Positions 9,257 to 64,000 of a DNA stretch of 64,000 nt are shown in pieces (position 1 is the stretch's first letter; each line of letters begins with the position of its first letter). Origin of the DNA: an uncultured Prolixibacteraceae bacterium (GTDB lineage: Bacteria > Bacteroidota > Bacteroidia > Bacteroidales > FEN-979); NCBI GenBank assembly GCA_964473485.1, contig CAYYPH010000002.1:59143-123142 (forward strand), given 5' to 3'. The notes under the pieces are model-generated. The model worked only from the letters and a program-made list of their open reading frames with translations. It did no database searches and was not told the origin of the DNA. The position numbers and the translations under genes were made by a program.

Positions 9257-12003
9257 TTTGTCAGAAATTTGCAGATTGGTTCAACCAACTGGTCAATGTC
9301 GCCAGCCCCCAGGGTCAGCAGTATCTCCGGCCTTGTTAATGCCAGTTCGTCGAGCAAAGCCTCCTTTGTGATCAGCTTCTTTTTCGTCGTTACCAGGTCA
9401 AGCAGCATGCGGGAGGTGACCCCGGGTATCGGTTTCTCCCTTGCCGGATAGATGTCGAGCAGCCATAATTCATCCAGCATCGAAAGGCTTTGGCCGAATT
9501 CCGTTGCAAAATCCCTGGTCCGTGAAAAAAGATGCGGCTGAAAGATCCCCGTGATCCTCCTGCCCGGATAAAATTCTTTTACGGCCGATATGCAGGCACG
9601 AAGCTCTTCGGGATGATGGGCATAGTCATCGATATACAGATGATCAGCGGTGTTGACCCGGATGTCGAATCTGCGCTGCACTCCATGGTAACTGGCCAGC
9701 GCCCGGCGAAGTGCTGATTCATCCAGTCCGGCCAGTAAACATGCTGCCAGGGCTGCCACGGCATTTTCTAGGTTGAACCGGCCCGGTACCCCCAGGGTGA
9801 GATCACGGATCAGTCCGCCCGGATGCACGAAATCGAAGTGAAAATTGTTGTCCTCGATCCTGATCCCGGAAGTATGAAAATCAGTAGCACCTTCGAGGGA
9901 ATAATGGTATGCTGAATATCCCGGCAAGGTTCCGCGATTTACCGCGGTGCCGAGTTTTGCAACCAGATATCCTCCCGGTCGGATCTTTCCTGCGAAGAGT
10001 GAAAAGTTTTCCTTCAGGTCCTCGTGGTTACCATAGATATCCAGATGATCGGCATCGGTGGAGGTGATGATGGCGATGGTCGGGTTCAGTTGCAGGAAAG
10101 ACCTGTCGAATTCATCGGCCTCCACGATGCATGCCGGGGCATCGGCAAGCGGGCCCGACGATAACCTTTGAGACGCGGCAGTATGCTTTTCCATTCCTTG
10201 ACCGGGAACCATGACTCCGCTTGGTTCCTGAAGTTTGCCCGGCGATTCAACGTGAATCCCCGCCAGAAAGTTGGTGCCGTAGTTTTTGGAAATGCCTCCT
10301 AGAAATGCGAGATGATCAATGCCTGCCGAGTGGAATATGTGTGCAATGAGGGTCGAGGTAGTGGTTTTGCCGTGAGTGCCCGCAACCGCGATGGTTGGAT
10401 ATTTTGAGGATATAAGGCCGAGGACCTCCGCACGTTTCATCATGGGGACATTCCTGCCGCGAAAATGCTGGTATGCCGGGTGATCGGCCGGAACGGCCGG
10501 CGTATAAACGGCCAGGTCGATATTGTTGGGAATGTCCTGTTTGTGCTCCTCATAAACAATGCGCATGCCTTCCGCTTCCAGTTGCCGTGTGAGCGGAGTC
10601 CGGGTGCGGTCGTAACCCGAAACGACAGATCCACGAATGGCAAAATAGCGGGCAAGCGCACTCATACCTATTCCGCCAATTCCCAGGAAATAGATGTTTC
10701 CGGGAAGTTTTTCGGGGAGACCTGAACCGTGGGATCCCGGTTTTGCTGTTTGATCCGTCGGTTCCTTTGGTTCCGGAATGTCTCGACCGATCAGGGCAAG
10801 CGATAATTTTGCTATTTTGCCGGCGGCCCCGCGCCTGGCCATCGAAGAAATATTCCTGCTCAGCGTGGAACACAGTGTGGTATCATTCATGATATTCATT
10901 ATCGCCGGCCCCAGACTTGCAACAGCTTCACCGTCCCTGACCAGTATCGCAGCTTCTGCCGATACGAGCGCCATTGCATTTTTCGTTTGATGGTCCTCGG
11001 CTACATTTGGCGAAGGGACCAGTATGGCCGGCTTTCCCACCAGGCATAATTCGGCGATCGCGATGGCGCCAGCCCTCGATATGATCAGGTCGGCCGCTGC
11101 AAAGGCCAGGTCCATTCGCTCGATGAAAGGCATCACGACGAACGGAAAGGGAATCAGGGGTTTATCAATAGTCACCGCATTGGCTCCGGCAGTCACTCCA
11201 TCTGGTTCATATCTCCTTGTCCATTTGCCTGAAACTGTTTCAGCGGCATGGTCAACAGGCATGGAGGTGATACCGGATGCCCGCAGATCTTCGATAATGC
11301 TTTCGAAAAAATATTTCCCGGTTTGCCAGATCAACTGGATCGAAGGGCCGCTTAAGGTATATTTAGCGATGAATTCAAGTATGGCTTTGTTGATGGTGCC
11401 TGCCCCGAGACTCCCGCCAATGACAAGGATGGTCCTCCGTTCAGGGTGCAGTTGGAAAAAATCCAGCGCTTCCGGTTTCAGGCCTGCACTGGCAGCCACC
11501 TCTTCCCTGACGGGATTTCCTGCCAGTACGGTCTTCTCTTTCGGGAAATAGCGTTCCATGCCTTCAAAGGCGACGAAGATCTTCTGCACTTTCGGTGCCA
11601 GTATCCGGTTGGTTACCCCGGGGTACGAGTTCTGCTCCTGTATGATGGATGGTATATGGAGGGAGGTAGCCACACGAAGCACCGGACCGCTGGCGTAGCC
11701 GCCGACACCGATCACAAGGTCGGGCCTGAAATTTCTGATCACTGAGAATGCCTGTCCCATGCTCAGAACGAGCTTAAACGGGAACATCAGGTTCTTCCAG
11801 GTCAGTTTTCGCTGAAAGCCACTGATGGTAAGACCTTTGATACGAAATCCGGCTGCCGGCACACGATCCATCTCCATCCTGCCCCTGGCTCCGACAAAAA
11901 GAATGTCAATATCCGGATCTGCCGCCCTTAATGCACGGGCTATGGCAATTGCAGGAAAGACATGGCCCCCGGTGCCGCCGCCGCTGATAATCACCTTCGT
12001 CAT
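9253..12003 (-). CDS. murG/murC: single ORF fusing MurG (N-terminal ~405 aa) to MurC (C-terminal ~480 aa)
   Basis: N-terminus GGGTGGHVFPAIAIA matches MurG. After a 30-aa P/E/G linker comes IYFLGIGGIGMSALA ... GTHGKTTT ... DYAHHP, which matches MurC. No stop codon at the junction (~10696-10790). Confidence 0.9.
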   Translation of the reverse strand: MTKVIISGGGTGGHVFPAIAIARALRAADPDIDILFVGARGRMEMDRVPAAGFRIKGLTISGFQRKLTWKNLMFPFKLVLSMGQAFSVIRNFRPDLVIGVGGYASGPVLRVATSLHIPSIIQEQNSYPGVTNRILAPKVQKIFVAFEGMERYFPKEKTVLAGNPVREEVAASAGLKPEALDFFQLHPERRTILVIGGSLGAGTINKAILEFIAKYTLSGPSIQLIWQTGKYFFESIIEDLRASGITSMPVDHAAETVSGKWTRRYEPDGVTAGANAVTIDKPLIPFPFVVMPFIERMDLAFAAADLIISRAGAIAIAELCLVGKPAILVPSPNVAEDHQTKNAMALVSAEAAILVRDGEAVASLGPAIMNIMNDTTLCSTLSRNISSMARRGAAGKIAKLSLALIGRDIPEPKEPTDQTAKPGSHGSGLPEKLPGNIYFLGIGGIGMSALARYFAIRGSVVSGYDRTRTPLTRQLEAEGMRIVYEEHKQDIPNNIDLAVYTPAVPADHPAYQHFRGRNVPMMKRAEVLGLISSKYPTIAVAGTHGKTTTSTLIAHIFHSAGIDHLAFLGGISKNYGTNFLAGIHVESPGKLQEPSGVMVPGQGMEKHTAASQRLSSGPLADAPACIVEADEFDRSFLQLNPTIAIITSTDADHLDIYGNHEDLKENFSLFAGKIRPGGYLVAKLGTAVNRGTLPGYSAYHYSLEGATDFHTSGIRIEDNNFHFDFVHPGGLIRDLTLGVPGRFNLENAVAALAACLLAGLDESALRRALASYHGVQRRFDIRVNTADHLYIDDYAHHPEELRACISAVKEFYPGRRITGIFQPHLFSRTRDFATEFGQSLSMLDELWLLDIYPAREKPIPGVTSRMLLDLVTTKKKLITKEALLDELALTRPEILLTLGAGDIDQLVEPICKFLTK

Positions 12004-13211
12004 GCCGCCGCCACGGTTTGAGGGTTCCCGGTAAGGGTGGGCTCCTGCAGCACATCCACCTCCGTACCGTTACGGGTGTCTATTTCACTTACTCTGCTCA
12101 CGCTGAGGATAATGCCAAGAGAGATGCTGGTGAACCAGATCGAGGTTCCGCCCATACTTACCAGCGGAAGGGGTTGCCCCGTTACCGGGAACAGATCGAC
12201 CGCGACTGCCATGTTGATGAAAGCCTGGAAGACCAGGCTGAATCCAATGCCAATACTGAGCAGGGTGCCGAAATTGCCCTGCGAATGGCTTGCAATCCTT
12301 ATGACCCGGTAGAACAGGATCAGATAAAGAAACATGACAAATGCCCCCCCGATCACGCCGTACTCTTCGATAATGATGGCGAAGATAAAATCGGAGTAGG
12401 GGTGAGGCAGAAAGTTCCGCTGCGTGCTCTTTCCCGGCGACTTCCCGATAAGCCCGCCCTGCACGATCGCGATCTTTGCCTGGTCGATCTGGTAAGTGGC
12501 ATCGGGATCCGCCTTCTCTTTGTTAAGAAAATGGTCGACCCTGGCGATCCAGGTGGTGCCGCGGGGAAAAAAGGAGGGAAATGCCTTGGCCAGGACGAAG
12601 ATCAGGATGATGCCGGCAATGCCGAGAACCATCAGCGATAACATATACTTCATGCTGATCCTGCCGATGAACATCAGCACCATGCAGGTGACGAAAAGAA
12701 TCGCTGCCGTTGAAAAGTTAGCCGGCAGGATGAGCACTGTCACCATGATCACGGGGATGATAACCGGAAGAAATCCCTTCCTGAAATCCTTCACCAGTTC
12801 CTGTTTCTTGCTGAGAACCCTGGCAAGATACATGATCAGGAAAAGCTTTGCCACATCCGAGCTCTGAAAGGTAAGGTTGACGATGGGCAGGGTTAACCAC
12901 CGGTTTGCTTCGTTGAGGTTGGTGCCCGAAATAAGTGTCAGGATCAGTAAAGGAAACGTAAGGTACATGCCTATTTGTGAGATCCTTGAATAATAGGTGT
13001 ATTTGACCAGGTGGGTGATGTACATCAGCCCCAGGCCGAACACGAGGATCATAAAATGCTTGAACAGGTAGTATTCGGTATTGCCATGCTGCTTTTTATA
13101 GGCCAGCGTCCCGGTGGAACTGTATACAGCCAGCAATGAAAAAATGCAAAGGATGATCACCACCATCCAGATCACTTTATCTCCCTTGATTTCCTTTACC
13201 GATTTGATCAT
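12000..13211 (-). CDS. ftsW: SEDS-family peptidoglycan polymerase FtsW
   Basis: Polytopic membrane protein with the conserved PLPLVSMGGTS motif; dcw position. Confidence 0.9.
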   Translation of the reverse strand: MIKSVKEIKGDKVIWMVVIILCIFSLLAVYSSTGTLAYKKQHGNTEYYLFKHFMILVFGLGLMYITHLVKYTYYSRISQIGMYLTFPLLILTLISGTNLNEANRWLTLPIVNLTFQSSDVAKLFLIMYLARVLSKKQELVKDFRKGFLPVIIPVIMVTVLILPANFSTAAILFVTCMVLMFIGRISMKYMLSLMVLGIAGIILIFVLAKAFPSFFPRGTTWIARVDHFLNKEKADPDATYQIDQAKIAIVQGGLIGKSPGKSTQRNFLPHPYSDFIFAIIIEEYGVIGGAFVMFLYLILFYRVIRIASHSQGNFGTLLSIGIGFSLVFQAFINMAVAVDLFPVTGQPLPLVSMGGTSIWFTSISLGIILSVSRVSEIDTRNGTEVDVLQEPTLTGNPQTVAAA

Positions 13212-13222
13212 CCTGCCGGGTT

Positions 13223-13771
13223 TTAAAGGTTTTTCACGGCCTTCCGGAATGCTTTTCCGCGTTCCTCATAATTTTCAAACAGGTCGAAAGAGGCACATGC
13301 GGGTGAAAGGAGGATGATATCACCGACCTCACCCATATAATAAGCCGACTGAACCGCTCCTTCCATCGAGATCTCATCCGTCATCGGGAGCCCAAGCTCA
13401 TCAAAAGCGTCGTGGATGCGCTCGTTGTTAAGACCGAGACAGACAATCCCCTTGACCTTTCTTCTGACCAGGTTCCGGATTATGCCGTAATCGTTGCCGG
13501 CTTCCACTCCGCCCACGATCCACACTACCGGGCGGTGTGCGTTTTCAAGCGCAAACCAGGTGGAATTGATGTTCGATGATTTCGAATCGTTGATAAACTC
13601 CATACCATGAATAACTGCAACGGTTTCAAGCCGGTGTTCAACCGATTGAAAACCCGAAAAGCACTCCTGGATGAATTCTTTCCTGATTTCCCGGATCTTT
13701 GGTCCGATGGAAGCTGCCAGGGAATCGTAAAGGGTGGCGTGACCCTGTTTGGCCAGTGATTCTAATGTCAT
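13223..13771 (-). CDS. murD: MurD C-terminal fragment only (182 aa; the N-terminal Rossmann and central ATP-binding domains are absent)
   Basis: HRLE...FINDSKSSNINS...LLSPACASFDLFENYEERG is the MurD C-terminal domain. There is no GTNGKT P-loop. The ORF starts 5 nt after the mraY stop, leaving no room for the missing ~260 aa. Confidence 0.8.
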   Translation of the reverse strand: MTLESLAKQGHATLYDSLAASIGPKIREIRKEFIQECFSGFQSVEHRLETVAVIHGMEFINDSKSSNINSTWFALENAHRPVVWIVGGVEAGNDYGIIRNLVRRKVKGIVCLGLNNERIHDAFDELGLPMTDEISMEGAVQSAYYMGEVGDIILLSPACASFDLFENYEERGKAFRKAVKNL

Positions 13772-13776
13772 CGTTT

Positions 13777-15030
13777 TTACCTGAGTTTGAGTGTAACAAT
13801 ACTGAGGACTGCAAGCATGATTCCCACGATCAGAAACCGCATGACGATCTTTGATTCGTGGTAACCGAGTTTCTGGAAATGATGGTGTAGGGGCGACATC
13901 AGGAAGATTCTCCTGCCTTCGCCGTATTTTCGCTTCGTATATTTAAACCAGCTTACCTGCATTACGACCGAAAGATTTTCCACCAGGAAGATCCCGCAGA
14001 AGATCGGGATCATGATCTCTTTCCTGATCATAATGGCAAATACGGCGATGATCCCACCCAGGGCAAGACTGCCTGTATCGCCCATGAAAACCTGGGCAGG
14101 GTAACTGTTGTACCAGAGAAAACCGATACAGGCGCCCACAAAAGCCGATATATAAATGGTAAGTTCGCCCGTGTTTGGTATATACATTATATTCAGATAA
14201 TTAGCAAAGACAATGTTGCCTGAGACATAGGCCAGGACCCCTAGTGTCAATCCGATGATGGCTGATGTGCCGGTAGCAAGTCCGTCGAGCCCGTCGGTAA
14301 GATTGGCGCCATTAGAAACGGAAGTGATGATAAAGATGACGATGGGGATGAATACGAGCCAGGTCCACTTTTTGGCGCCTTCACCCATCCACGAAATCAG
14401 GGAACTGTAATCGAATTCGTTATTCTTGACAAACGGTATGGTGGTCTTGGTTGATTGAACGGGTGTCTTGGAATAAATCCTGGTCTTATCGGCGCCCGAT
14501 TCCATGTTGAATACATCCGAAGCCGGAACGAAAGCGGTTTGCCTGATCCTTTCGCGGATCACCACACTGTCGCTGAAATACATCGTGAACCCGATGATCA
14601 GCCCGATGCCTATCTGCCCCATGATCTTCACCTTGCCGGGAAGCCCTTTTTTGTCTCTTTTGAAAACCTTGATATAGTCATCGAGAAACCCGATCATCCC
14701 CAGCCAGACCGTGGCCACCAAGACCATGATGACATATATGTTGTGCAGTTTGGCGAACAGCAAAGCGGGTATAAGTATGGCCGCCAGGATGATAAGCCCA
14801 CCCATGGTCGGGGTTCCCTGTTTGTTGTCCTGTCCCTTAAGCCCCAGGTCTCTGACTGTTTCACCGACCTGCTTAGCACGGAGAAAATCGATGATCCTGC
14901 GCCCGATAATCATCGAGATGAACAACGAGGTGATCAAAGCCGCTGCCGCCCTGAACGAAATGTACTGGAACACCCCCGTTCCGGGAATGTTGAAGTTGTC
15001 GTGCAACCAGATAAACAAATAGTACAGCAT
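13777..15030 (-). CDS. mraY: phospho-N-acetylmuramoyl-pentapeptide transferase MraY
   Basis: Polytopic; [10 protein letters not shown] and [11 protein letters not shown] motifs. Confidence 0.95.
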
Positions 15031-15040
15031 GGCGGCGGTG

Positions 15041-16525
15041 TTATGAATTGTCTGACATTAGGATTTCGCTGAGTATCTCCCTGTCGTCAAAGTGGTGCCT
15101 GACCCCTTTGATCTCCTGGTATGTTTCATGTCCCTTGCCGGCGACCAGGATAATATCACCGGTGCGGGCAATGGCACAGGCGGTTTTTATGGCCTCGCGG
15201 CGGTCGGTTATGACCAGCACCTTGTGTTTTTGCTCCGGTCCGACTCCCGCCATCATTTCCGCCAGGATCGATCCGGGCTCCTCGTTGCGCGGATTATCGG
15301 AAGTAAGGATCACACGGTTGCTCAAATGGCAGGCAATTTTCGCCATGACAGGCCGTTTGGCTGTGTCACGGTTGCCCCCGGCCCCCACTACCGTGATAAG
15401 ATTTTCCTGGTAAGTCCTCAGGCCATTGATGGTTTCCAGCACATTTTTCAGGGCATCGGGAGTGTGGGCGTAATCAACGATCGCCGTTATATTTTCCTTC
15501 GAGCGTATCGCGTTGAATCTCCCGTTCACCGGATCCAGGCTGCTTAAAACGGTTAAAACCCCGGTCGCTTCCTGGCCCAGGAGCACGGCGGTGCCGTAAA
15601 CAGCCAGCAGGTTGTAAGCGTTGAACTCGCCCACCAGGCGGAACCATACTTCACGGTTTTCGATGTTCAGCAGCAACCCCTGAAACTGGTTCTCCACGAT
15701 CCTGCATTTGAAATCGCCGGCCGATCTTACGCTGTAGATGTACCTGGAGGCCTGACAGTTCTGAACCATCACCAACCCGTTACGATCGTCCTTATTGACA
15801 AGAGCAAAGGATTGGGCCGGCAGCCGGTCGAAGAATTTCTTTTTTGCCTGCAGATAGGCATCGAATGTCTTGTGATAGTCGAGATGGTCGTGGGTAAGGT
15901 TGGTGAAAACCCCGCCAGTGAAATGCAGTCCTGCAATGCGTTCCTGATCGACCGCATGCGATGAGACCTCCATGAAGCAGAATTCACACCCTTCATCGAC
16001 CATCTGCGCAAGCAGGTTGTTGAGTTGAACCGGATCAGGGGTCGTATGGGTGGCGGTCAACTCCCTTCCATTGATCACGTTCTTAATGGTGGAGATCAGG
16101 CCGGCCGTATATCCGAGCCTGAGGAAAAGCTGGTGGAGCAGGGTAACGGTCGTCGTCTTCCCGTTGGTGCCGGTAACACCTACCAAACGTAGTTTTTGGC
16201 TTGGATTGCCGTAAAATGCCGATGCCAATACCCCCAATGCATAATGGGTGTTGACGGCCCTCAACAGCACTATGCCGGCGGGTAACCTCTCAGGCAGCCG
16301 CTCGCAAACCACTGCCACAGCTCCCTTGCCAATGGCCGTTTCAATATAATCATGACCGTCGGAAGCGGTACCCGTGACCGCCACAAACAAATCTCCCGGT
16401 TCAACGGTCCGTGAGTCGAAGCGGATGCCGTTCACCAGCGTATCAGGATCTCCCTGGATGAGGGTGATACCGGAATCGGCGATCAGTTCATGCAGCAACC
16501 TCATATCGCTTTGTTTTGTTTCCAA
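15041..16525 (-). CDS. murE: UDP-MurNAc-tripeptide synthetase MurE
   Basis: [11 protein letters not shown]-loop, DYAHTPDAL, and a DNPR motif near the C-terminus. Confidence 0.95.
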
Positions 16526-56111: not shown

Positions 56112-56147
56112 TAAAAAAAGACTGACAATCGGAAGATTATCAGTCTT
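56112..56147 (-). terminator. rho-independent terminator directly following the tRNA 3'-end fragment
   Basis: 13-bp stem 56118-56130 / 56135-56147 with a GGAA loop. Its only irregular pair is G-U on the minus strand (C-A on plus). A U-run follows on the minus strand. Confidence 0.55.
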
Positions 56148-56150
56148 TTA

Positions 56151-56172
56151 GGTAGCCCGTAGGGGAATCGAA
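56151..56172 (-). other. tRNA 3'-end fragment (T-loop to acceptor end): putative att core / left junction of the integrative element
   Basis: The minus strand reads TTCGATTCCCCTACGGGCTACC, that is T-loop + 3' T-stem + acceptor 3' strand + discriminator + CC. The 5' T-stem partner (AGGGG) and the rest of a tRNA are absent upstream. Confidence 0.45.
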
Positions 56173-56340
56173 TAGCTGCTTTCGTTTACTTTCATTTTCA
56201 GTTAATGTGCTTTTAGTCTGATCATTACATTTTTTGACGAAGCAAAGAAAAGCAGAAAAAAGCAGAGAAAAGAACAAAATGTTTTACCAATTGTTTTACC
56301 AAGTTTTTTTTGTATTACCTTTATAGCAAAGGTTTTCGAG

Positions 56341-57657
56341 ATGGCAACAACAAAGTTACTTTTAAAAACTGAAAAAGAAAATAAAAACGGAAAAATTCCA
56401 CTTTTTCTCAGAATCATCCAGGACCGGAAGCCGACCTACATTTCGCTGGGGGTCTATCTGAAACAAAATGAATGGAATGATGATGAGAAGAAGGTAAAGA
56501 AAACACACCCGAATTCAACCCGGTTGAATGCATACATCGCAAAAAAAGTTGCGGAGGCTGAGGCGAAAATGGTCGAACTTCAAACCAAACAGAAACGACC
56601 CAGCGGGAAAAGAATCAAAGCCGAAATCATGGGTGGCGCTGCTGTGAACTTTTTTGAATTTACCAAGGCTCACCAGGAGGCGATAGAAAAGGCCGGGCAT
56701 ATCAATATGGCCAAAAGGATAAAATCCATTCAGGAAAAACTAAAGACGTACCTGGGTCATGAAAACCTGTTTCTCACGGATATTGATGTGGAGTTCCTGG
56801 TTAAGTTCAATGATTACCTGGCTGGCACTCTTCAAAATAAAACAAACACCATCACCAGCAACATGAAATTGATCAGAAGAATGCTGAATGATGCCATCCG
56901 CCAGGGGAAGATGAACCGGAATGATTATCCGTTTTACTCTTACCGGTTGAAAAATGAGCCCACAAAAAGAGATTACCTGGCAGAGGACGAGTTGCTGGCT
57001 ATTGAAAAACTAGCGCTTGAGCCTGGTTCAAGGTTGGAAGAGGTCCGGGATATGTATGTCTTTTCGGCCTATGCCGGAGGAATCAGGGTGTCGGACCTGC
57101 TTATGCTTCGATGGAGAAATTTTGATGGAGAGCGGCAGCATTTCAAGGTGCTTAAGACCGGGAAGGAGCTACACATCAAACTGCCGGAAAAGGCACTTGA
57201 AATTCTTAAAAAATATCAGACAGCGGAAAGCAAACCCGACTCCCTGATCTTCTCCATACTCCGGTCAAATATTGATTTTGACAATCCAAAACAGGTCACC
57301 GGGGCCATTTCATCGGCCACCGCCCAGATCAATGAACGGCTAAAGATAATTGCAGATAAGGCCGAAGTAGAAAAAAGGATAAGTTTCCACACCGCCCGAC
57401 ACACTTTTGCCACACGCGCTCTAAGAAAAGGGATCAGGATCGAATATGTATCCAAATTGCTTGGCCATGCCACCATCAAAGAAACACAGGTTTATGCCAA
57501 GATTGTTGATGAGGAGTTGGATAATGCCATGGATGTTTTTAACGAGAAAAAGGAGGTGACGAAGAAAAGGGTTGCTAAAAAGACTGGAACTTCAAACAAA
57601 CCAATTGCAAAACTAAAAAAATATATATTTAAAGGAATAACTTTAATAGTATTTTAA
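56341..57657 (+). CDS. int: tyrosine recombinase / phage-type integrase (Bacteroidetes N-terminal arm-binding type)
   Basis: Catalytic region RVSDLL...HTARHTFATRAL...LLGHATIKETQVYAKI (R..HxxR..Y). Confidence 0.93.
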   Translation: MATTKLLLKTEKENKNGKIPLFLRIIQDRKPTYISLGVYLKQNEWNDDEKKVKKTHPNSTRLNAYIAKKVAEAEAKMVELQTKQKRPSGKRIKAEIMGGAAVNFFEFTKAHQEAIEKAGHINMAKRIKSIQEKLKTYLGHENLFLTDIDVEFLVKFNDYLAGTLQNKTNTITSNMKLIRRMLNDAIRQGKMNRNDYPFYSYRLKNEPTKRDYLAEDELLAIEKLALEPGSRLEEVRDMYVFSAYAGGIRVSDLLMLRWRNFDGERQHFKVLKTGKELHIKLPEKALEILKKYQTAESKPDSLIFSILRSNIDFDNPKQVTGAISSATAQINERLKIIADKAEVEKRISFHTARHTFATRALRKGIRIEYVSKLLGHATIKETQVYAKIVDEELDNAMDVFNEKKEVTKKRVAKKTGTSNKPIAKLKKYIFKGITLIVF

Positions 57658-57661
57658 ATAT

Positions 57662-57712
57662 TTAAAGTAATAGCTTTATATTTGCATCGATAAATTAAAG
57701 TAATAGCTTTAT
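57662..57712 (+). promoter_or_regulatory. two perfect 18-bp direct repeats TTAAAGTAATAGCTTTAT bracketing a -7 box TATATTTG
   Basis: Repeat 1 is 57662-57679; repeat 2 is 57695-57712 and overlaps the ATG of the HTH gene. The -7 box is 57677-57684. Likely an autoregulatory operator. Confidence 0.5.
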
Positions 57713-58166
57713 GAAGACACAAGAGTTGATCTTAATCCAAACCGATAAAAGGATAAGGAAGATAGCCCGAATAAAGGATGATAATCCGCCAAATGGTTGG
57801 ATTTACGCAATTCGGATGGCCCTGGGAATGTCGATGCGTCAGCTTGGGAAATTGGCTGAAATTACGCCACAAGGAGTTAAAGATATAGAAACCCGGGAGA
57901 AAAATGGGAATATCACCCTCGCATCCTTAGAACAAATAGGCAATAAGCTAAACATGAAGCTGGTTTATGGTTTTGTACCTTTAGATGGATCTTTGCAAAA
58001 AATGATCGATAAGCGCGCGATTGACTTAGCAACAAAAATTGTAGCAAGAACGGCAAATACCATGAAATTGGAAGATCAGGCAGTGAGTCAAGCCATGCTG
58101 AAAAAATCAATAAAGGCCAAAGCCCAGGAAATCAAGCAAAAAAATCTAAAGGCACTATGGGAATAA
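57711..58166 (+). CDS. 'mobile mystery protein A' (XRE-type HTH)
   Basis: PPNGWIYAIRMALGMSMRQLGKLAEITPQGVKDIETREKNGNITLASL matches my memory of the TIGRFAM mob_myst_A family. Confidence 0.8.
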   Translation: MKTQELILIQTDKRIRKIARIKDDNPPNGWIYAIRMALGMSMRQLGKLAEITPQGVKDIETREKNGNITLASLEQIGNKLNMKLVYGFVPLDGSLQKMIDKRAIDLATKIVARTANTMKLEDQAVSQAMLKKSIKAKAQEIKQKNLKALWE

Positions 58167-58756
58167 AATTGGATTATATAGGAGGTCAGACCCCTCTGGA
58201 TGAAATAGAGATTTCTGGTCTAAAGATCAAGACTATTACAACTGTCGGGGAGCTCAACGAACATGAACAGAACAATATTGAAGAGGCTTTTCATTGGGCG
58301 CTTAACCGGAAAATTCCCATAGAGACCCTATTAACCAGAGAATGGATTTACAACATGCATTACAGGATGTTTAATAATGTTTGGGATTGGGCCGGAGAAA
58401 AACGCACGTCAAATAAAAATATCGGAGTTGATAAATATGCTATTGAACCGGCATTAATCCACATGCTCGATGATATAAAGTATTGGATTGAAAATAGAAC
58501 TTTTGATCCTGTCGAAATTGCAATTCGATTTAAGCATAGATTGGTGTCAATCCATTGCTTCCCAAATGGCAATGGACGACATGCGAGGTTATGTGCTGAC
58601 ATACTGATAAAACAATTGACAGGGAGGGATGGCTTTACGTGGGGAAGTCATCACAGTCTATATCAGGAAAGCGAGTTACGGAGTGCTTACATCGATGCTT
58701 TAAAGAAAGCAGATACTGGTGATTACCAGCCATTAATTGAGTTTGCTTGTTCTTAA
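58157..58756 (+). CDS. 'mobile mystery protein B' (Fic-domain protein)
   Basis: Fic motif HCFPNGNGRHARL. Overlaps the upstream HTH gene by 10 nt. Confidence 0.85.
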   Translation: MGIKLDYIGGQTPLDEIEISGLKIKTITTVGELNEHEQNNIEEAFHWALNRKIPIETLLTREWIYNMHYRMFNNVWDWAGEKRTSNKNIGVDKYAIEPALIHMLDDIKYWIENRTFDPVEIAIRFKHRLVSIHCFPNGNGRHARLCADILIKQLTGRDGFTWGSHHSLYQESELRSAYIDALKKADTGDYQPLIEFACS

Positions 58757-58786
58757 GAATTCTCAATCGATTATAATGTATATTTT

Positions 58787-58809
58787 GGCAGTAAAGACAT
58801 TTTACTGCC
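58787..58809. terminator. hairpin between convergent genes
   Basis: ggcagtaaa / tttactgcc 9-bp stem flanked by T/A-rich runs. Confidence 0.5.
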
Positions 58810-58830
58810 GTTTAATAGAAATTGTTTTAA

Positions 58831-59259
58831 TTACCTCCGGTTTCTCAGGAAAAAAATTCCAAAGGCCAGTAATGCAATTAACCCGGAAATGAGCCAGGGG
58901 ATGGCTGATATAAGGTTGTCAAGTTTGTCGGAGCGGACAATCTTAATCTTTTCGACCGGGAATCGGCGATCGATATAGATGGTATCAGCCTTGCATTTTC
59001 CGCGAACGAATAAAGTATCATGAAGGCGATGAATGGCCACTTCAAGCCGGTCTTTGTGAATATAAACGGTGTCATGAATGCTGTCGATATTCAGGATTGT
59101 GTCAGCTTCAGCCTGGGGGATGGGTATTGAGTCCTTGATATACAGGGTATCGGGGATCTTTAATTCCGGGTGAAGAGCCAGAAGGCGGTGGAGGCGTTCG
59201 GTAGGGGAGCAAGATGTTGAAAGCAGGATGAGGATCAGGATTGAGAGGATGGTTTTCAT
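58831..59259 (-). CDS. lipoprotein with a C-terminal TM anchor (unimolecular-spanin-like)
   Basis: MKTILSILILILLSTSC lipoprotein-type signal and a C-terminal helix AIPWLISGLIALLAFGIFFL + RNRR. Last gene of the lysis-type cassette. Confidence 0.5.
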   Translation of the reverse strand: MKTILSILILILLSTSCSPTERLHRLLALHPELKIPDTLYIKDSIPIPQAEADTILNIDSIHDTVYIHKDRLEVAIHRLHDTLFVRGKCKADTIYIDRRFPVEKIKIVRSDKLDNLISAIPWLISGLIALLAFGIFFLRNRR

Positions 59260-59357
59260 GGGAGGGATTTTTGAATATCGAATATTGATCAACGAAATAC
59301 GAAGTATTCACGAACACCCGAAATAAATAAACATGATCGTGAGTAATTTTAAAATAC

Positions 59358-59918
59358 CTATAAATAAGCGTTCAGTCGGTTATACCAGCCGCGTTCAAAT
59401 CGACTTTGAGACGGATCCTTTTTGATGATGTTTACAATGAAGGCAACCCTGGCATTGTATACCTGGATCAGGAATTGATATGGATTCGCACGATTAACCG
59501 CTTTCAGGGTGGCTGGACCGACAATGCCATCGGCAGCAACTCCGAGGATCCTTTGGGGGATGATGATGCCCCATTTGCCGCTGCACCAAAGCCAGTCGAC
59601 CAGAATATCGGCCACCTTTTGACTCCGGATCTCATCGGCATGCCAGCGATCCCAGTAATATTTTCTGAGTACCATCAGGGAATCGTCTGCTGTGAGCAGA
59701 CGGATATCGTCGATATCGATATCGGAATCACCGTCTTTGTCATACCCTACTTTTTGCCAGGTGGAAAGGGTAACTCCCCTGTTGGTTGGACCTCCGTTAT
59801 CAATGGGGTCATTGCTGAACAACCCTTCACTCTGATAGAGTTTAATTGCGAGATGCTTGAAATCGGCCATCGTTTTGAATTTTAAGGATGATGGGTAATC
59901 AGGTTTAAAAGGATTCAA
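59358..59918 (-). CDS. GH108-family muramidase with peptidoglycan-binding C-terminal domain (endolysin-like)
   Basis: YQSEGLFSNDPIDNGGPTNRGVT (EGGxxxDPxDxGGxTxxGIT-type motif), and ...DGIVGPATLKAV in the PG_binding_3-like part. An alternative start is ATG 59870. Confidence 0.85.
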   Translation of the reverse strand: MNPFKPDYPSSLKFKTMADFKHLAIKLYQSEGLFSNDPIDNGGPTNRGVTLSTWQKVGYDKDGDSDIDIDDIRLLTADDSLMVLRKYYWDRWHADEIRSQKVADILVDWLWCSGKWGIIIPQRILGVAADGIVGPATLKAVNRANPYQFLIQVYNARVAFIVNIIKKDPSQSRFERGWYNRLNAYL

Positions 59919-60097
59919 CCCTTCGATGTTATTGTCAGGATGGTGTCCCGGACGTAAATGAGGCCGAGGATGGTGGGTAAAAAGGCTGTGAATTCACCCA
60001 GGGTGATAATTCTCATAAAAAGCAGAACTACCGCCAGGATCAACAATATGATGCCAAGGACGGTAGTTTTCCAGTTGTTAAAAATTCGCTCTTTCAT
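59915..60097 (-). CDS. 60-aa two-TM protein (holin-like)
   Basis: Two hydrophobic helices. Its stop abuts the muramidase start. Confidence 0.5.
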   Translation of the reverse strand: MKERIFNNWKTTVLGIILLILAVVLLFMRIITLGEFTAFLPTILGLIYVRDTILTITSKG

Positions 60098-60099
60098 GG

Positions 60100-60372
60100 T
60101 TATTTTGTATTTCTGAGGTAAATCTGAATTTCATCGATGCGCTTGAGGATCTCTTTGGTGTCGGCTTTGATGTCGGACCTGATGATGTCGAAGTTCCTGG
60201 TGTTGTCTGTCTTGTGCAGCAAAAGATCCTGTTTAAGGTTGGTAATTTCTACATTCAACTCTGCCAGACGGATTTCCATATGAACCCAAATAGAGACGAT
60301 TGCCAGCAGGAAGGTAAACAGACTAATTGCCTGCGCGAGTGGCATCCCCAGTATGTTCGATTTCATGGTCAT
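60100..60372 (-). CDS. 90-aa N-terminal-TM + coiled-coil protein (holin/antiholin-like)
   Basis: TM helix AISLFTFLLAIVSIWV followed by a charged helical tail. Lies 2 nt upstream of the 60-aa gene. Confidence 0.45.
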   Translation of the reverse strand: MTMKSNILGMPLAQAISLFTFLLAIVSIWVHMEIRLAELNVEITNLKQDLLLHKTDNTRNFDIIRSDIKADTKEILKRIDEIQIYLRNTK

Positions 60373-60449
60373 GGCATTTGAGTTTTTGTAAGTTTTGGAT
60401 TAAAAAAGTGCCCCTTTTCTTTGGAGCAGGGGCACTTTTATGGCACATA

Positions 60450-61106
60450 TTACTGGACGACACTGGCAGCATCCGCGCCAGCTTTGAACTGAATGATACC
60501 CTTCGGAGCTCCTGCAATGGTTTGCGAATAATCAAGGGTCATTACATGAAGGGCGGTTTGAGCGTCTACCCAATCGGCAGGGAGGTTAATCTCGGCAGAT
60601 CCGGCAGAACGGAGTTCAACATCGGGGAACAGGATCACCTTGTTGGTGGTGCAGTTGATCATGATGAAGGTCAGCGCCGAAGCCAGTTCATCGGGATTCA
60701 CCGTGTTCGGATTCCAGCTGAAATCAATCACCTGGTTGGGCAGTGAAGTCATCACGACGTTTGAAATCGTACTCCCTTCAAAATCACATAAAATGATCTT
60801 GGTGTGGTCGAGCACCGGTGGATCGCCGATAAAGGCGTTCTTTACATTGATGCTCACAATTTTGTTGAATGGGGACATTTTCTTCATCGTTCCGGCATAT
60901 ACCGAATTGATGAGGGGTAGAACCTGACGGATCAGGTACACAATGGTCGAAAACTTAGTCCGCTGGGTGGACTGAGCGATTGTGTTAGGATTCTTCACTC
61001 CTGCGGGTTTGGTGCGCATGGTATTCACACCAAACTGTTTGGAGAACACGGCAGTTCCGAACATTTTGCGGGTTCTGCCTGTGATGGGGTTTTGAACAAT
61101 TGCCAT
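60450..61106 (-). CDS. 218-aa protein of unknown function (possibly the Bacteroidota DUF6266-type family, from memory)
   Basis: Clean ORF. The N-terminal pattern ...G.T.KMFGTAV....G.N.MR.KP..V.NP.T..Q..QR.KF resembles that family. No enzymatic motif seen. Confidence 0.5.
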   Translation of the reverse strand: MAIVQNPITGRTRKMFGTAVFSKQFGVNTMRTKPAGVKNPNTIAQSTQRTKFSTIVYLIRQVLPLINSVYAGTMKKMSPFNKIVSINVKNAFIGDPPVLDHTKIILCDFEGSTISNVVMTSLPNQVIDFSWNPNTVNPDELASALTFIMINCTTNKVILFPDVELRSAGSAEINLPADWVDAQTALHVMTLDYSQTIAGAPKGIIQFKAGADAASVVQ

Positions 61107-61166
61107 GGTAGTTAGTTTTAAGGGTTAATACTGAATTAGTGGACTTGACACGGACTTGATACGGGT

Positions 61167-61319
61167 TTAATGCGGTCCGGGTCTTTTCCTTTTGTGCCTG
61201 ACGGCAAGCCTGTCAGTTTCCTTCACCGTGGTTGAAGGGTTTCTTTCGGCAAATTTCCTGGTGGTGTACTCACCATTGTCGGCACGACGGTACCGGCTTT
61301 TCTTTCTAATTGTTGACAT
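61167..61319 (-). CDS. 50-aa highly basic peptide
   Basis: MSTIRKKSRYRRADNGEYTTRKFAERNPSTTVKETDRLAVRHKRKRPGPH. The ATG is 39 nt downstream of a consensus -7 box and is the first gene of the minus-strand cassette. Confidence 0.4.
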   Translation of the reverse strand: MSTIRKKSRYRRADNGEYTTRKFAERNPSTTVKETDRLAVRHKRKRPGPH

Positions 61320-61357
61320 GACGTTGGGTTTTATGGTGAATGAATAATCAAGTATGA

Positions 61358-61365
61358 CAAATATA
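61358..61365 (-). promoter_or_regulatory. -7 box TATATTTG for the minus-strand cassette
   Basis: Exact TAnnTTTG on the minus strand upstream of ATG 61319. Confidence 0.4.
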
Positions 61366-61636
61366 CAGGCGTTCAAGTCAGATCCCATTAAATCATCTGA
61401 TTGATAGATATTTATGCATTAAATTGCATTGAAATGTTTCGAGGTAATCACGGGTAAACTGGCAGGATGTAATTATCGATGGTTCTAATTTTTTGGGGGA
61501 AATAGAAACCTGCAAAAAATCAAAATCTTAGGCGCCTTTGACCGTAGTAAAATTTGACGCGCAAGGCTGCCGGTCATTTTTTTACCCCTAAAAAAATAAA
61601 AATTTAAAAAAATGAAGGCACCCAAAGGGCACCGGC

Positions 61637-61669
61637 CTTGTGCGGCAATATTTTACGCAGGTATCTTTG
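61637..61669 (+). promoter_or_regulatory. candidate promoter CTTG-N21-TATCTTTG facing the structured block
   Basis: Exact -7 consensus at 61662-61669 and a -33-like CTTG at 61637-61640, ~55 nt upstream of module 1. Confidence 0.35.
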
Positions 61670-61725
61670 AATAAGATTTGGATTTTTAACGCTTCCGACA
61701 TGGCGAATGAATGACGGCATACTGC

Positions 61726-61841
61726 CCCCACTGCATGAACGCGAAGGATGAGCGTGAAATGCGGTGGGGACAATTGCCAGAGAACAAAGAATCACAACCC
61801 ACCAACCGGCGTTTTTTAAACGTGGGTTGGTGGTGGAGGTA
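61726..61841 (+). repeat. structured module copy 1
   Basis: Hairpin 61726-61769 with loop GAAGGATGA, hairpin 61799-61833, then TGGAGGTA at 61834-61841. Confidence 0.7.
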
Positions 61842-61855
61842 GCCAGCTGACCAAC

Positions 61856-61978
61856 TGCCACTTTATAAGCCCGAAGGATGAGGGCGAAATAATGTGGCAG
61901 GAACTGGCCGGAATTCCGAAAACCAACTGACATTAACCGGCCACGCACTTTAGTGGCGGGTTAATGGTGATGGAGGTA
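61856..61978 (+). repeat. structured module copy 2
   Basis: Hairpin 61856-61899 with the identical loop GAAGGATGA, hairpin 61931-61966, then TGGAGGTA at 61971-61978. Confidence 0.7.
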
Positions 61979-63125
61979 TACGTTGCTGCTCAAACTTCAT
62001 AAAGGCAATGCATTTACCGGTGCCGGAAAAAGGAAAATGGATAGCCAGTAACGCATTAAAGTAACTTTTATGGAGGGTGAGCGGAGCTCTCCTGACATGC
62101 GCCACTGGTTTTCAGCAATAAAATAGTACAAGGGAAATTGGTGCATGGCAAGGGTGCGTAGTGAAGCCCGGAATAACAAGTTATCCTTAATGGGTTACAG
62201 ATCGAGGTAAAAATGCTTTGCCATTACTCGTGGTCCTGAATAACCCCAACAGTTGGATTAACAGACAAGGGCAACTTGCTGTACCCGATTGGAGGTGGAT
62301 TCCGCTTTTCCGGCATCCGCCGGAATGAGTGGTGCAGTATGTTGCCCAATCAGGATTTACGCCCGGAATACGAAAGCTGATGGCTGCCGCCGTTTTTTCT
62401 TCAACGGGGGCTGGCAGCGACGAATGCTGGCGGACCTATGCTGCCGGTAAATTCAGGCCCGGGGCAATGAGCGGCGAGGATTGGGCTGGTGGAATAATTT
62501 ATTGAAAAGCCTGAGCCATCGCCAGCCCAAGACTGTGCAAGCCGCGAATGATATAGACTGATAATGCAGGCAGCAAACCCAAAAAACTCGTTTTACTTGT
62601 ACCGGAAAATGATGGCAAAGCACTTACTCAAACCTCTCGTACTACTAACGGGGATATTTAACATAATTTGGTTATAGGACAAGGCACACCCGGAAAAATA
62701 GATATGCAGTGCCTTGTACTATAACTACATGTTATGTTAATATAGCCCTATCTCGACCTACAAAGGGACATAGAATGCTGACTACCAGGGATGTTCCCAG
62801 TACGAAGGATGTTGCAACATCTTATGTGACAAGCTTTGGCAAATTCAAAATAAGGCTGTTTGGTAATACAATTCCGGGTAGTTGATACACCAAATAAACC
62901 TCCCAGCTGCAGAGCCGCGGGGTATCCTCGGGAATAACTTGCAGTAACCGGAAGCGGTGGGGAACTAACCCCAAATGCGATTAGAAAAAATACAATAACC
63001 AAAGTTAACAACCCCAAGCTGAAAATGTTAGAATATAATGAAGGAAACCGTACAACCCGGTGTAGGATTATTATGACAACATAAGCCATAAGAATCAACC
63101 AGAGGTATTAATTCGGAAAAAGCAA

Positions 63126-63572
63126 TCATTTCATATTTTTATTTATCCTCATCAACACTTGCAGAGTCCTCTTGTCTTTATCACCAAAAAAGAATTTACG
63201 GAGTACCTGGTTAAACAGTGACTTTTCATCTTTATCAATCACGCTAAACAAAGTCATTGAAGATTTCAGCTTTATATCGTCGGGACTACCGAAAATGTCA
63301 AAAGCCGATTTCCCTTCAATTTTCAATAATGCAGAGGTTAATTCTGCTAAACGACTTCCTAAAATGGGATGGGCGAGATATTGCCTTGTTTCTTCAAGGT
63401 CTCTTAATCCATAATATTGGGCTTCCCGGCTTAAACCTAACCCTTGAATCTGTGGAAAGATAAACCACATCCATCCGCTTTGTTTTTGACCATTTTTAAT
63501 CTCCTCAAGCACATTTCCGTAAGTATATTCTTGAGCCCTTAGAAAACGGTTTAAGTTATATGATACCTGCAT
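63126..63572 (-). CDS. DUF1810-family protein
   Basis: NLNRFLRAQEYTYGNVLEEIKNGQKQSGWMWFIFPQIQGLGLS...AHPILGSRL is the characteristic DUF1810 pattern. Confidence 0.85.
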   Translation of the reverse strand: MQVSYNLNRFLRAQEYTYGNVLEEIKNGQKQSGWMWFIFPQIQGLGLSREAQYYGLRDLEETRQYLAHPILGSRLAELTSALLKIEGKSAFDIFGSPDDIKLKSSMTLFSVIDKDEKSLFNQVLRKFFFGDKDKRTLQVLMRINKNMK

Positions 63573-64000
63573 GAATCTTTATACAAATAGGAACTGTTCA
63601 TTATGATCTCAGAAGATTTTTAATGGTCATATGGACTAAGATAAAAACATCCTTATGCCAATCTTGTACGCCAAAAATAAAAAAACATTAGCAACATCAT
63701 CGACAGAATCGATGCATTTTAAAAGAAATATTATTCTGAAAAAATATTTATCTTCCAATCTTGGATTCAATCTGTTTTTTATTACTACATTTAACATGCT
63801 CATTATTAGGAGTGAAGAGTTATGGTGAAACCAATACATTTTTTTTGCTGCATTATTGAATATCAGGATGATTTGATTATGATAAAATTCGCAGGAACTT
63901 ATGTGGTCTAGTTATGGTTACTATGGGACATGAGCCTCACGAACAAAAAGAATCTCAAAATAGCATCAAAATCTAACAAAAAGTATTTTGGTCAAACTTG

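Follow-up and report, generated by a model that had tools for sequence, protein, structure and literature searches.

NBU1 is a tRNA-targeting element of the Bacteroidota that carries an arm-binding tyrosine integrase and uses the 3' end of a tRNA-Leu gene as its insertion site. Elements of the NBU type are about 10 kb long, possess a relaxase and an oriT, and are mobilised by conjugative transposons. DLP12 of Escherichia coli is a defective prophage at the argU tRNA gene that keeps its integrase and a working lysis cassette. In type 10 secretion, e.g., by ChiWXYZ of Serratia, holin/endolysin/spanin cassettes located outside prophages release proteins without a signal peptide. Here, we describe an integrative genomic island of 40.5 kb that occupies the 3' end of a tRNA-Glu(TTC) gene in an uncultured Prolixibacteraceae bacterium. 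We analysed a 64,000-nt stretch of its genome (the window; C2:59143–123142, C2 being contig CAYYPH010000002.1 of the 5.03-Mb, 100-contig assembly GCA_964473485.1). The last part of the window, 56151–64000, is the left end of the island, and these first 7.8 kb amount to about one fifth of it. Positions given without a contig are those of the window. The type of element is known; its backbone is an unusual, recurrent variant. A mosaic structure, with a backbone derived from phages and cargo that can be exchanged, is well supported, and we consider it fairly probable that it is, as a whole, a phage-derived integrative island at tRNA-Glu in which a conserved backbone is combined with exchangeable low-GC cargo.

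The left core site (attL, 56152–56173) is a 22-nt minus-strand copy of the tRNA-Glu(TTC) 3' end, reaching from the T-loop to CC and identical to the 3' end of the intact tRNA. The plus strand reads GGTAGCCCGTAGGGGAATCGAA at these positions, which is the tRNA 3' end reverse-complemented, and ARAGORN detected no complete tRNA there. The 22-mer was found in exactly two copies in the whole assembly: at the left edge and at C2:155819–155840. At the latter position, the 22-mer forms the 3' end of a complete tRNA-Glu(TTC) gene on the minus strand (C2:155817–155893; window-equivalent 96675–96751) and places the right att site 32.7 kb past the end of the window. No degenerate third copy of the core was found between the two ends at up to five mismatches. 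The terminator hairpin of the original tRNA-Glu gene (56112–56147, minus strand, read from the sequence together with its T-run) lies in the chromosomal flank, where it now adjoins only the orphan tRNA fragment. Its counterpart in the empty site of G010, a genome of the same genus, directly follows the intact tRNA-Glu. The tRNA has been rebuilt by the island, with a new, island-supplied terminator hairpin behind it.

Paired direct repeats (ATGTTTTACCAATTGTTTTACCAAGT, plus strand, 56279–56304) lie just inside attL, and a matching pair (ATGTTTTACCTATGTTTTACCAAGT, window-equivalent 96601–96625) lies just inside the attR end. The repeat motif, GTTTTACC, is thus paired within both island ends. These pairs are candidate arm-type sites for the arm-binding domain of the integrase. 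The identical 22-bp cores and the paired repeats within both ends show that the island is one recombination unit.

Genes flanking the island are conserved across the genus. In G010, they are contiguous on one contig in the order R2-R1-tRNA-Glu-L1-L2, with no insert, and the flanks of the island, when joined in silico, aligned with G010 across the junction with 84.7% identity over 150 nt. Because G010 shows an uninterrupted site, the region was inserted and is not ancestral. In another genome, G005 (C30:1–44000; L015–L017), approximately 39 kb of unrelated DNA separate the orthologues of both flank genes, so that the neighbourhood must be regarded as variable; no integrase of the island's type was found in these 39 kb. 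In most other relatives, the two flanks were on separate contigs. The GC content of the island is 36.6%, vs 47.8% and 48.9% in the 40-kb flanks and 50% genome-wide. Within the window part (42.2%), the RNA-like block described below (46.8%) and the stretch with the lysis and DUF6266 genes (46.0%) are less AT-rich than the rest.

An initial annotation of the window had proposed an integrase-bounded insertion at a tRNA fragment. Both the junction and the adjacent integrase are where it placed them, and the exact direct repeats in a tRNA gene, together with the empty site of a relative, bear the proposal out. It was also right that the window holds no right att site, and the intact minus-strand tRNA that it advised looking for beyond 64 kb is the tRNA-Glu at C2:155817–155893. 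The comparison it recommended with genomes lacking the insertion defined the boundaries through G010, and the outcome it named as fatal, an ancestral region, did not occur. Its statement that the element is more AT-rich than the chromosome except in the RNA-like block is correct for the element and for the block, with the lysis and DUF6266 stretch being a further less AT-rich part.

The integrase (438 aa, 56341–57657, plus strand) is an uninterrupted tyrosine recombinase with an arm-binding N-terminal domain. It matched the Pfam families Arm-DNA-bind_5 (5.5e-20), Phage_int_SAM_5 (3.6e-18), and Phage_integrase (3.8e-24), and an integrase PHROG (3.8e-39). An intact recombinase, direct repeats that include a tRNA copy, an empty site in a relative, and a deviant composition are all features of an integrative island. 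We scanned 42 open reading frames (ORFs) of the island, 40 of them against both PHROGs and Pfam and two small ones against Pfam only. No terminase, portal, capsid, tail, replication, relaxase, or type IV secretion system (T4SS)/conjugation gene was recognised among the 42 ORFs, while the same Pfam library did detect the large terminase (TerL) of a related phage. The island is therefore not a prophage: of the features of a tailed prophage, it has an integrase and a lysis cassette, and TerL, portal, and major capsid genes were not found. Likewise, none of the ORFs had a Pfam match to a relaxase, coupling protein, or T4SS component, as would define an integrative mobilisable or conjugative element.

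The backbone consists of the integrase, an operon encoding a basic peptide, DUF6266, two holin-like proteins, an endolysin, and a u-spanin-like protein, and a structured non-coding block. The same genome contains a prophage-like region (C1:704931–719400; L044 = C1:700000–719999) with a TerS-like gene, TerL, a portal-sized and other late genes, and a lysis cassette of its own. Directly after its TerL, this prophage carries modules of the block (copy at C1:704.9–708.1 kb), with an ORF for a 367-aa ClpP-like SDH protease between two block modules and HerA-like and helix-turn-helix (HTH) genes past the block. Its late operon ends in a gene for a transmembrane (TM) protein like the 90-aa one of the island, followed by holin-like, endolysin, and spanin-like genes, which is the order seen in the island. 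More generally, in phages with the block, the late operon (virion genes and then lysis genes) diverges from TerS-TerL, and the block comes after TerL. The minus-strand operon of the island corresponds to such a late operon without virion genes; the terminases are missing, and the basic peptide and DUF6266 are present instead. We assign a phage origin to the backbone because its first lysis gene product is 54% identical to that of the C1 prophage, the order of the late operon is the same, and the block follows TerS-TerL in phages. From these similarities, we infer that the backbone probably corresponds to the late region of a family of local temperate phages, of which it has kept both ends.

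The lysis cassette (58831–60372, minus strand; Pfam, PHROGs, and reading of the sequence) is of phage type and comprises four genes. In the order of transcription, they encode a small protein of 90 aa with TM and coiled-coil segments (60100–60372), a small protein of 60 aa with two TM helices (59915–60097), a GH108 muramidase with a PG_binding_3 domain (59358–59918; Pfam; PHROG endolysin, 4.7e-31), and a C-terminally anchored lipoprotein that resembles a u-spanin in its lipobox and C-terminal TM helix (58831–59292). All but the muramidase were recognised by reading the sequence. In distant relatives, a Peptidase_M15_4 enzyme occupies the position of the muramidase. When 58800–63200 was compared with GenBank phages (blastn, distant mode), the only match was one of 140 nt to the endolysin of Porphyromonas phages.

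Upstream of the cassette lies the gene for DUF6266 (218 aa, 60450–61106, minus strand; PF19781, 3.1e-21). We found 308 homologues, of which the 120 listed were 58–94% identical and almost all 215–219 aa long. An AlphaFold2 model (predicted local distance difference test score 82) suggests a disordered N-terminus of 40 residues, two helices, and a seven-stranded FN3/Ig-like sandwich; the 40 N-terminal residues are basic and nearly invariant. Foldseek matched the model to FN3 domains exclusively, and DUF6266 would therefore be without a capsid fold. The protein has no signal peptide. DUF6266 has no family in PHROGs, no relative in IMG/VR by the search used, and was absent from the phage contigs seen. 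A kinship between DUF6266 and the phage proteins at its position was considered and rejected, as a profile comparison gave no similarity. The operon begins with the ORF at 61167–61388 (minus strand), which encodes a very basic peptide of about 50 aa from an ATG at 61319. This peptide is kept (70–80% aa identity) upstream of DUF6266 in G010, in a further C1 copy, and at eight metagenome loci. The C1 copy belongs to a second complete set in the same genome (C1:85417–90627, L043), made up of block, basic peptide, DUF6266, two TM proteins, GH108 muramidase, and u-spanin-like protein. Its proteins show 57–82% aa identity to those of the island, its block is interrupted by a 1-kb insertion with a 173-aa ORF, and neither an integrase nor a terminase was found nearby.

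All six frames are closed over an ORF-free stretch of about 61400–63100. None opened when TGA was read as W, TAG as Q, TAA as Q, or both, and recoded phage genes were therefore rejected. Within this stretch lies a conserved structured block (61498–62798, plus strand) composed of two units (~61498–61836 and ~61824–62798). The DNA of 61390–63120 is about 80% identical in several species of the genus, and partial copies occur elsewhere in the same genome. In the hairpin at 61541–61667, 97.4% of cells were paired across nine sequences, and 10 of the 42 pairs showed compensatory changes; none of 500 shuffles matched this pairing, and slid registers did not come close either. Twelve distinct sequences covering the unit 2 core gave a consensus fold of −196 kcal/mol on the plus strand vs −152 kcal/mol on the minus strand, with 161 vs 58 G-U cells and 14 vs 22 A-C cells, respectively. 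Because both the fold energy and the G-U cells are asymmetric, the data favour a candidate large non-coding RNA read from the plus strand, the one that encodes TerL in phages. No Rfam 15 family was matched (cmscan, E up to 1) except by two chance microRNA-like hairpins that scored far below the gathering thresholds. The most widely conserved piece of the block is the 30-nt start (62652–62681) of a long hairpin (62653–62746). It recurs, with 87–90% identity, 1.1–1.5 kb upstream of DUF6266 genes that are themselves only 61–67% identical (L059, L062, and L069).

Using an exact 25-mer from the most conserved hairpin, we identified 42 metagenome contigs with the block. Where the left side was readable, the block followed the basic peptide-DUF6266-lysis operon in 8–10 contigs and TerS-TerL in ~9. 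The order TerS-TerL-block was seen in the C1 prophage, in contigs of G013 and G010, and in L055, the sole IMG/VR contig with the block, which thus has a phage context. The island's block is 75–79% identical to the copy in the co-resident C1 prophage and about 80% identical to those of other phages. Genes have been inserted inside the block at ~61830. In the C1 prophage, this is the gene of the ClpP-like SDH protease, whereas the insertions in L093 and L112 measure up to 3.7 kb.

Relatives of the island share its backbone at high identity. A metagenome contig, L122 (JGI Ga0247844_1006876), has the same 22-bp core and has retained the pairs of arm repeats. It is 96.7% identical in the integrase, which here too adjoins these lysis genes, 96.0% in the HTH protein, 94.5% in Fic, and 93.6% in DUF6266. 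Beyond the block, it continues with unrelated genes of 129, 1063, 232, and 282 aa. Cargo thus appears to be exchanged at the right edge of the block. The block is a portable module that marks the border of backbone and cargo, and because the cargo differs beyond it and genes have been inserted within it, we interpret it as a junction for content exchange. In G014, a 93% identical integrase lies 1.9 kb from the same lysis genes. At another locus, G010 has a copy that starts with the lysis cassette and runs to the FHA gene of the cargo, with 63–95% identity over full-length genes; it is without integrase, HTH/Fic pair, and PP2C-kinase-AAA segment. A 433-aa ORF beside the lysis cassette of G010 was considered as an integrase and rejected; it gave chance fragments only (best E 0.26) and resembles a membrane protein.

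Outside the genus, we examined eight distinct contexts with DUF6266 homologues 59–70% identical to that of the window. A tRNA gene and/or an Arm-DNA-bind_5 integrase was present within 4 kb in seven of them, the tRNAs being tRNA-Ser (twice), tRNA-Glu, tRNA-Lys, and tRNA-Arg. In six of the eight, as in all same-genus copies, the genes after DUF6266 encoded small TM proteins and an endolysin. Five contexts shared an order of DUF6266, one or two small (TM) proteins, a Peptidase_M15_4 endolysin, a protein of ~190 aa, and an Arm-DNA-bind_5 integrase on the opposite strand; the integrase lay beside a tRNA in three of these five (tRNA-Ser twice, tRNA-Glu once). Two other contexts directly adjoined tRNA-Lys or tRNA-Arg. 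In half of the eight, an ORF-free gap of 1.5–1.9 kb preceded DUF6266, with other cargo beyond it: AAA_13 plus a Pycsar-type TM effector, WYL plus a PIF1 helicase, or a LytTR two-component system. The tRNA-Glu case among these five (L070; ENA ERZ24794671 NODE_16, 10001–15116) is a distant island with DUF6266, M15 endolysin, and integrase, likewise inserted at a tRNA-Glu(TTC) gene. Its integrase is only 23% identical to that of the window, and it adjoins an orthologue (53% aa) of the window's left-flank gene. The neighbourhood is a recurrent landing site.

The cargo accounts for most of the island's length. On its left side, between integrase and lysis cassette, the plus strand carries genes for an XRE-type HTH_3 protein (151 aa, 57711–58166) and a Fic protein (199 aa, 58157–58756), which overlap by 10 nt. 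In PADLOC, the pair matched PDC-S04 (1.5e-19) and SoFic, and it appears to be variable accessory cargo of the toxin-antitoxin or defence type. No match to either gene was found in the 1.9 kb between integrase and lysis genes in G014. Elsewhere in the same genome, at C8:30000–31042, lies a paralogous pair whose HTH and Fic proteins share 51% and 56% aa identity with those of the island. To the right of the block lies an accessory DUF1810 gene (63126–63572, minus strand; Pfam, 3.3e-54), of which a 33-aa remnant is present in G010 and an intact copy in L129.

The start of a sigma-70-family gene (63988–64000, plus strand) leads 32 kb of cargo that extend to the tRNA-Glu as a single long plus-strand run (ORFs; Pfam, PHROGs, NCBIfam, and PADLOC). 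The run begins with the sigma-70-family gene, a weak anti-sigma-like protein, secreted proteins, and a caspase with a CARDB domain. It continues with two FN3/Lcl_C proteins, two CFI-box-CTERM proteins, a PqqD/radical-SAM/SPASM enzyme, and an amidohydrolase, and ends with a PP2C phosphatase, a 1189-aa Ser/Thr kinase, a ClpB-like AAA+ protein, a radical-SAM activase, and an FHA protein. About 12 further products of the run are unknowns. Four cargo proteins have signal-peptide-like N-termini, as read from the sequence, and the part led by the sigma and anti-sigma genes, with the caspase, is a predicted envelope operon. The CFI-box-CTERM proteins, the PqqD-radical SAM-SPASM enzyme, and the amidohydrolase together form a predicted peptide-modification cluster (L001:12195–18065 and L002:9848–10756). 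The CFI-box-CTERM domain of the two proteins is NCBIfam NF041770, and small ORFs in the cluster may be precursors. The ORF o226 was counted as cargo and not backbone because its homologues in other contigs (L064, L067) lie between the radical-SAM enzyme and the amidohydrolase. The kinase set (L001:18370–19101 and L002:1108–9475) includes a 517-aa unannotated protein before the ClpB-like AAA+ protein. It had PADLOC matches to PDC-M21C, mad6/PD-T4-6, and PDC-M37B/DolB, the last being the ClpB-like AAA+ protein, and the PP2C-kinase-AAA+-FHA set is a candidate conflict or defence system. Its part from PP2C to the activase is absent from the otherwise collinear G010 copy. Five cargo ORFs without annotation gave nothing against PDB sequences at E up to 1, and a cluster look-up of such ORFs for source names returned none that was informative.

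If the island works as its parts suggest, the integrase would mediate excision and integration at tRNA-Glu, and recombination where the non-coding block ends on its right would swap the cargo. Because the island is without transfer genes of its own, its movement from cell to cell would depend on others: on related helper phages, which we prefer and to which we give somewhat less than an even chance, or on other passive routes. The DUF6266-lysis operon would be a maintained unit that, when on, causes either lysis or a lysis-type release of DUF6266.

Several observations weigh against a phage-derived island with such a backbone. The assembly contains only the two integrated junctions, with no attP or attB junction and no circle, and no excisionase was recognised among the island ORFs. 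Nothing ties the island directly to any helper phage, and the block that it shares with the resident prophage is only 75–80% identical to the copy there. About 15 island ORFs are without annotation, and a cryptic role in replication or packaging is possible for them. The link of DUF6266 to integrases does not hold for the whole family: none of 20 loci with homologues of 23–40% identity had an integrase of this type within 7 kb, and the link is therefore limited to the close DUF6266 subfamily. Finally, the lysis-DUF6266-block module occurs without a nearby integrase in G010, at C1:85–91 kb, and probably in L093; the module may therefore be picked-up cargo and not backbone.

This last point also speaks for the strongest alternative, in which the DUF6266-lysis operon is a host-useful device, similar to type 10 secretion, that releases the signal-less DUF6266 and is carried as cargo. 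The presence of DUF6266 in 26 of the 151 genomes of the order, with 1–12 copies each, and its lack of a signal peptide combined with a modelled FN3-like fold also fit. We consider this explanation possible and hold it tentatively, since two features would not be expected of ordinary cargo: the close-subfamily module sits at the very end of tRNA-integrated islands beside the integrase in most contexts examined, and the block upstream is common to phage packaging regions.

A true phage satellite is an unlikely explanation. The island would be dormant at tRNA-Glu until a helper of the TerS/TerL family with the same block induces it and packages it via a signal in the block into helper particles; it would bring its own lysis cassette for release, and DUF6266 would be a particle or interference protein. 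The island does combine an integrase and att sites with an absence of virion genes, and, like P4 and phage-inducible chromosomal islands (PICI), it has a hotspot with defence-like cargo. Its block directly adjoins the terminase genes of co-resident and co-occurring phages, and DUF6266, missing from those phage contigs and from IMG/VR, is specific to islands and not to phages. However, at 40.5 kb, the island exceeds known satellites two- to fourfold in length and is outside their range of about 7–20 kb. No primase, Rep, small-terminase-like gene, or AlpA-type HTH_17 gene was found in it, and its only HTH protein is the partner of Fic. HTH_17 and a D5 primase do occur in a distant relative, L071, beyond its integrase. 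The block, with its G-U pairs and strand asymmetry, is RNA-like and differs in this from a DNA packaging site, the lone IMG/VR contig with the block is of phage context, and lysis genes of its own would be needless to a satellite of a temperate helper.

The bolder proposal of a new large class of Bacteroidales phage satellites, in which island and helper communicate or are packaged through the block (as RNA or as the gene for it), is in our view rather unlikely. Under this proposal, the island would encode two proteins that form particles or bind nucleic acid, namely DUF6266 (by its basic N-terminal arm) and the polybasic peptide, its lysis cassette would time release, and the zone past the block would be a hotspot that moves sets of defence, peptide-modification, and signalling genes between species. 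Dependence on helper phages, if true, would mean that satellites also exist in this phylum and can be far larger than the concept has so far allowed.

Compared with the phage-derived island that we favour, a decaying cryptic prophage at tRNA-Glu, similar to DLP12, would have undergone deletion of the genes for virion, terminase, and replication and later gained unrelated genes, with nothing being maintained. Such decay occurs, as TerL remnants lie beside the block in the metagenome contig L106, and both the gene order, which is that of a phage late region minus virion genes, and the GC mosaic of the island are compatible with it. Yet the backbone ORFs are all intact, and the backbone is 94–97% identical in a relative whose cargo differs. 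DUF6266 and the basic peptide, in the place of the virion genes, are strongly conserved. The virion-less layout moreover recurs with 23%-identical integrases, other tRNA targets, and non-homologous endolysins, which points to a maintained lineage and makes decay very unlikely.

An ordinary prophage with structural genes too divergent to be recognised is hardly credible: it has room in about 15 unannotated ORFs, but large terminases are usually detectable, as that of the local phage was, the large ORFs are annotated as non-phage (kinase, caspase, AAA+, radical SAM, sigma factor), several of the unannotated products have signal-peptide- or lipoprotein-like N-termini, and one long plus-strand run of cargo type is unlike phage modules.

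The element is thus settled as a 40.5-kb tRNA-Glu island, and is neither a prophage nor a small element centred on an RNA. The initial annotation had seen that this is no normal prophage layout and that the 7.8 kb hold no virion or replication genes; the PHROGs and Pfam scans agreed, and no phage structural or replication module appeared in the 32 kb downstream. What it had listed in these 7.8 kb also holds: the Fic/HTH pair (57711–58756), a lysis-type cassette on the minus strand, now resolved into a GH108 endolysin and three membrane-type neighbours, two unknown ORFs, which are those of DUF6266 and the basic peptide, the DUF1810 gene, and an ORF-free structured block, whose closed frames, ~80% conserved DNA, and compensatory pairs were confirmed. 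Two other descriptions that it offered, a decayed prophage and a phage satellite, may still apply to the origin and lifestyle of the island. Its suggestion that a small integrative element had formed around the RNA has to be given up, as the element measures 40.5 kb and not ~8 kb and the block stands equally often beside phage terminases.

The combination of integrase, lysis cassette, DUF6266, block, and exchangeable cargo recurs in uncultured Bacteroidales and is an undescribed architecture. Engineered or anoxic habitats are the source of many of these bacteria, about whose mobile elements little is known. The occurrence of the block beside phage terminases as often as beside the island operon is a concrete, testable link between islands and phages, and it places a candidate new large RNA at the junction where cargo appears to be exchanged.

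The island resembles NBU1 in the arm-binding, SAM-like, and catalytic domains of its integrase, in insertion at a tRNA 3' end with a duplicated short core and a rebuilt tRNA, and in its arm repeats. Unlike NBU-type elements, it is 40.5 kb long and, with no Mob, oriT-associated, or T4SS gene found, carries a phage lysis cassette instead. With DLP12, it shares the location at a tRNA gene, an integrase, a complete holin/endolysin/spanin set, the lack of virion genes, and a mosaic composition. It differs in belonging to a recurrent lineage that spans genera with swapped integrases and endolysins, and in its conserved island-specific DUF6266, its structured non-coding block, and its large region of exchangeable cargo. 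P4-like and PICI satellites are likewise integrase-bounded and virion-less, with variable defence-type cargo beside a conserved core, and the island shares a non-coding region with the packaging genes of co-resident phages; it is, however, much larger and has a full lysis cassette, and no replication, AlpA-type, or packaging-redirection genes were recognised in it. As in type 10 secretion, a lysis-type cassette is co-transcribed with the gene for a conserved protein without a signal peptide, and such sets occur several times per genome, away from complete prophages. In contrast to that system, the cassette is located next to the integrase where an integrative island ends and downstream of a phage-shared block, and the release of DUF6266 is putative. 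The block itself is comparable to GOLLD and ROOL, two large structured RNAs associated with prophages, in being a long, ORF-free, hairpin-rich sequence with covarying helices on phages and phage-derived elements. It differs from them in lacking an Rfam 15 match, in being from Bacteroidales and ~1.3 kb long, in its two-unit structure, which inserted genes can interrupt, and in its fixed position, after TerL or before the DUF6266 operon.

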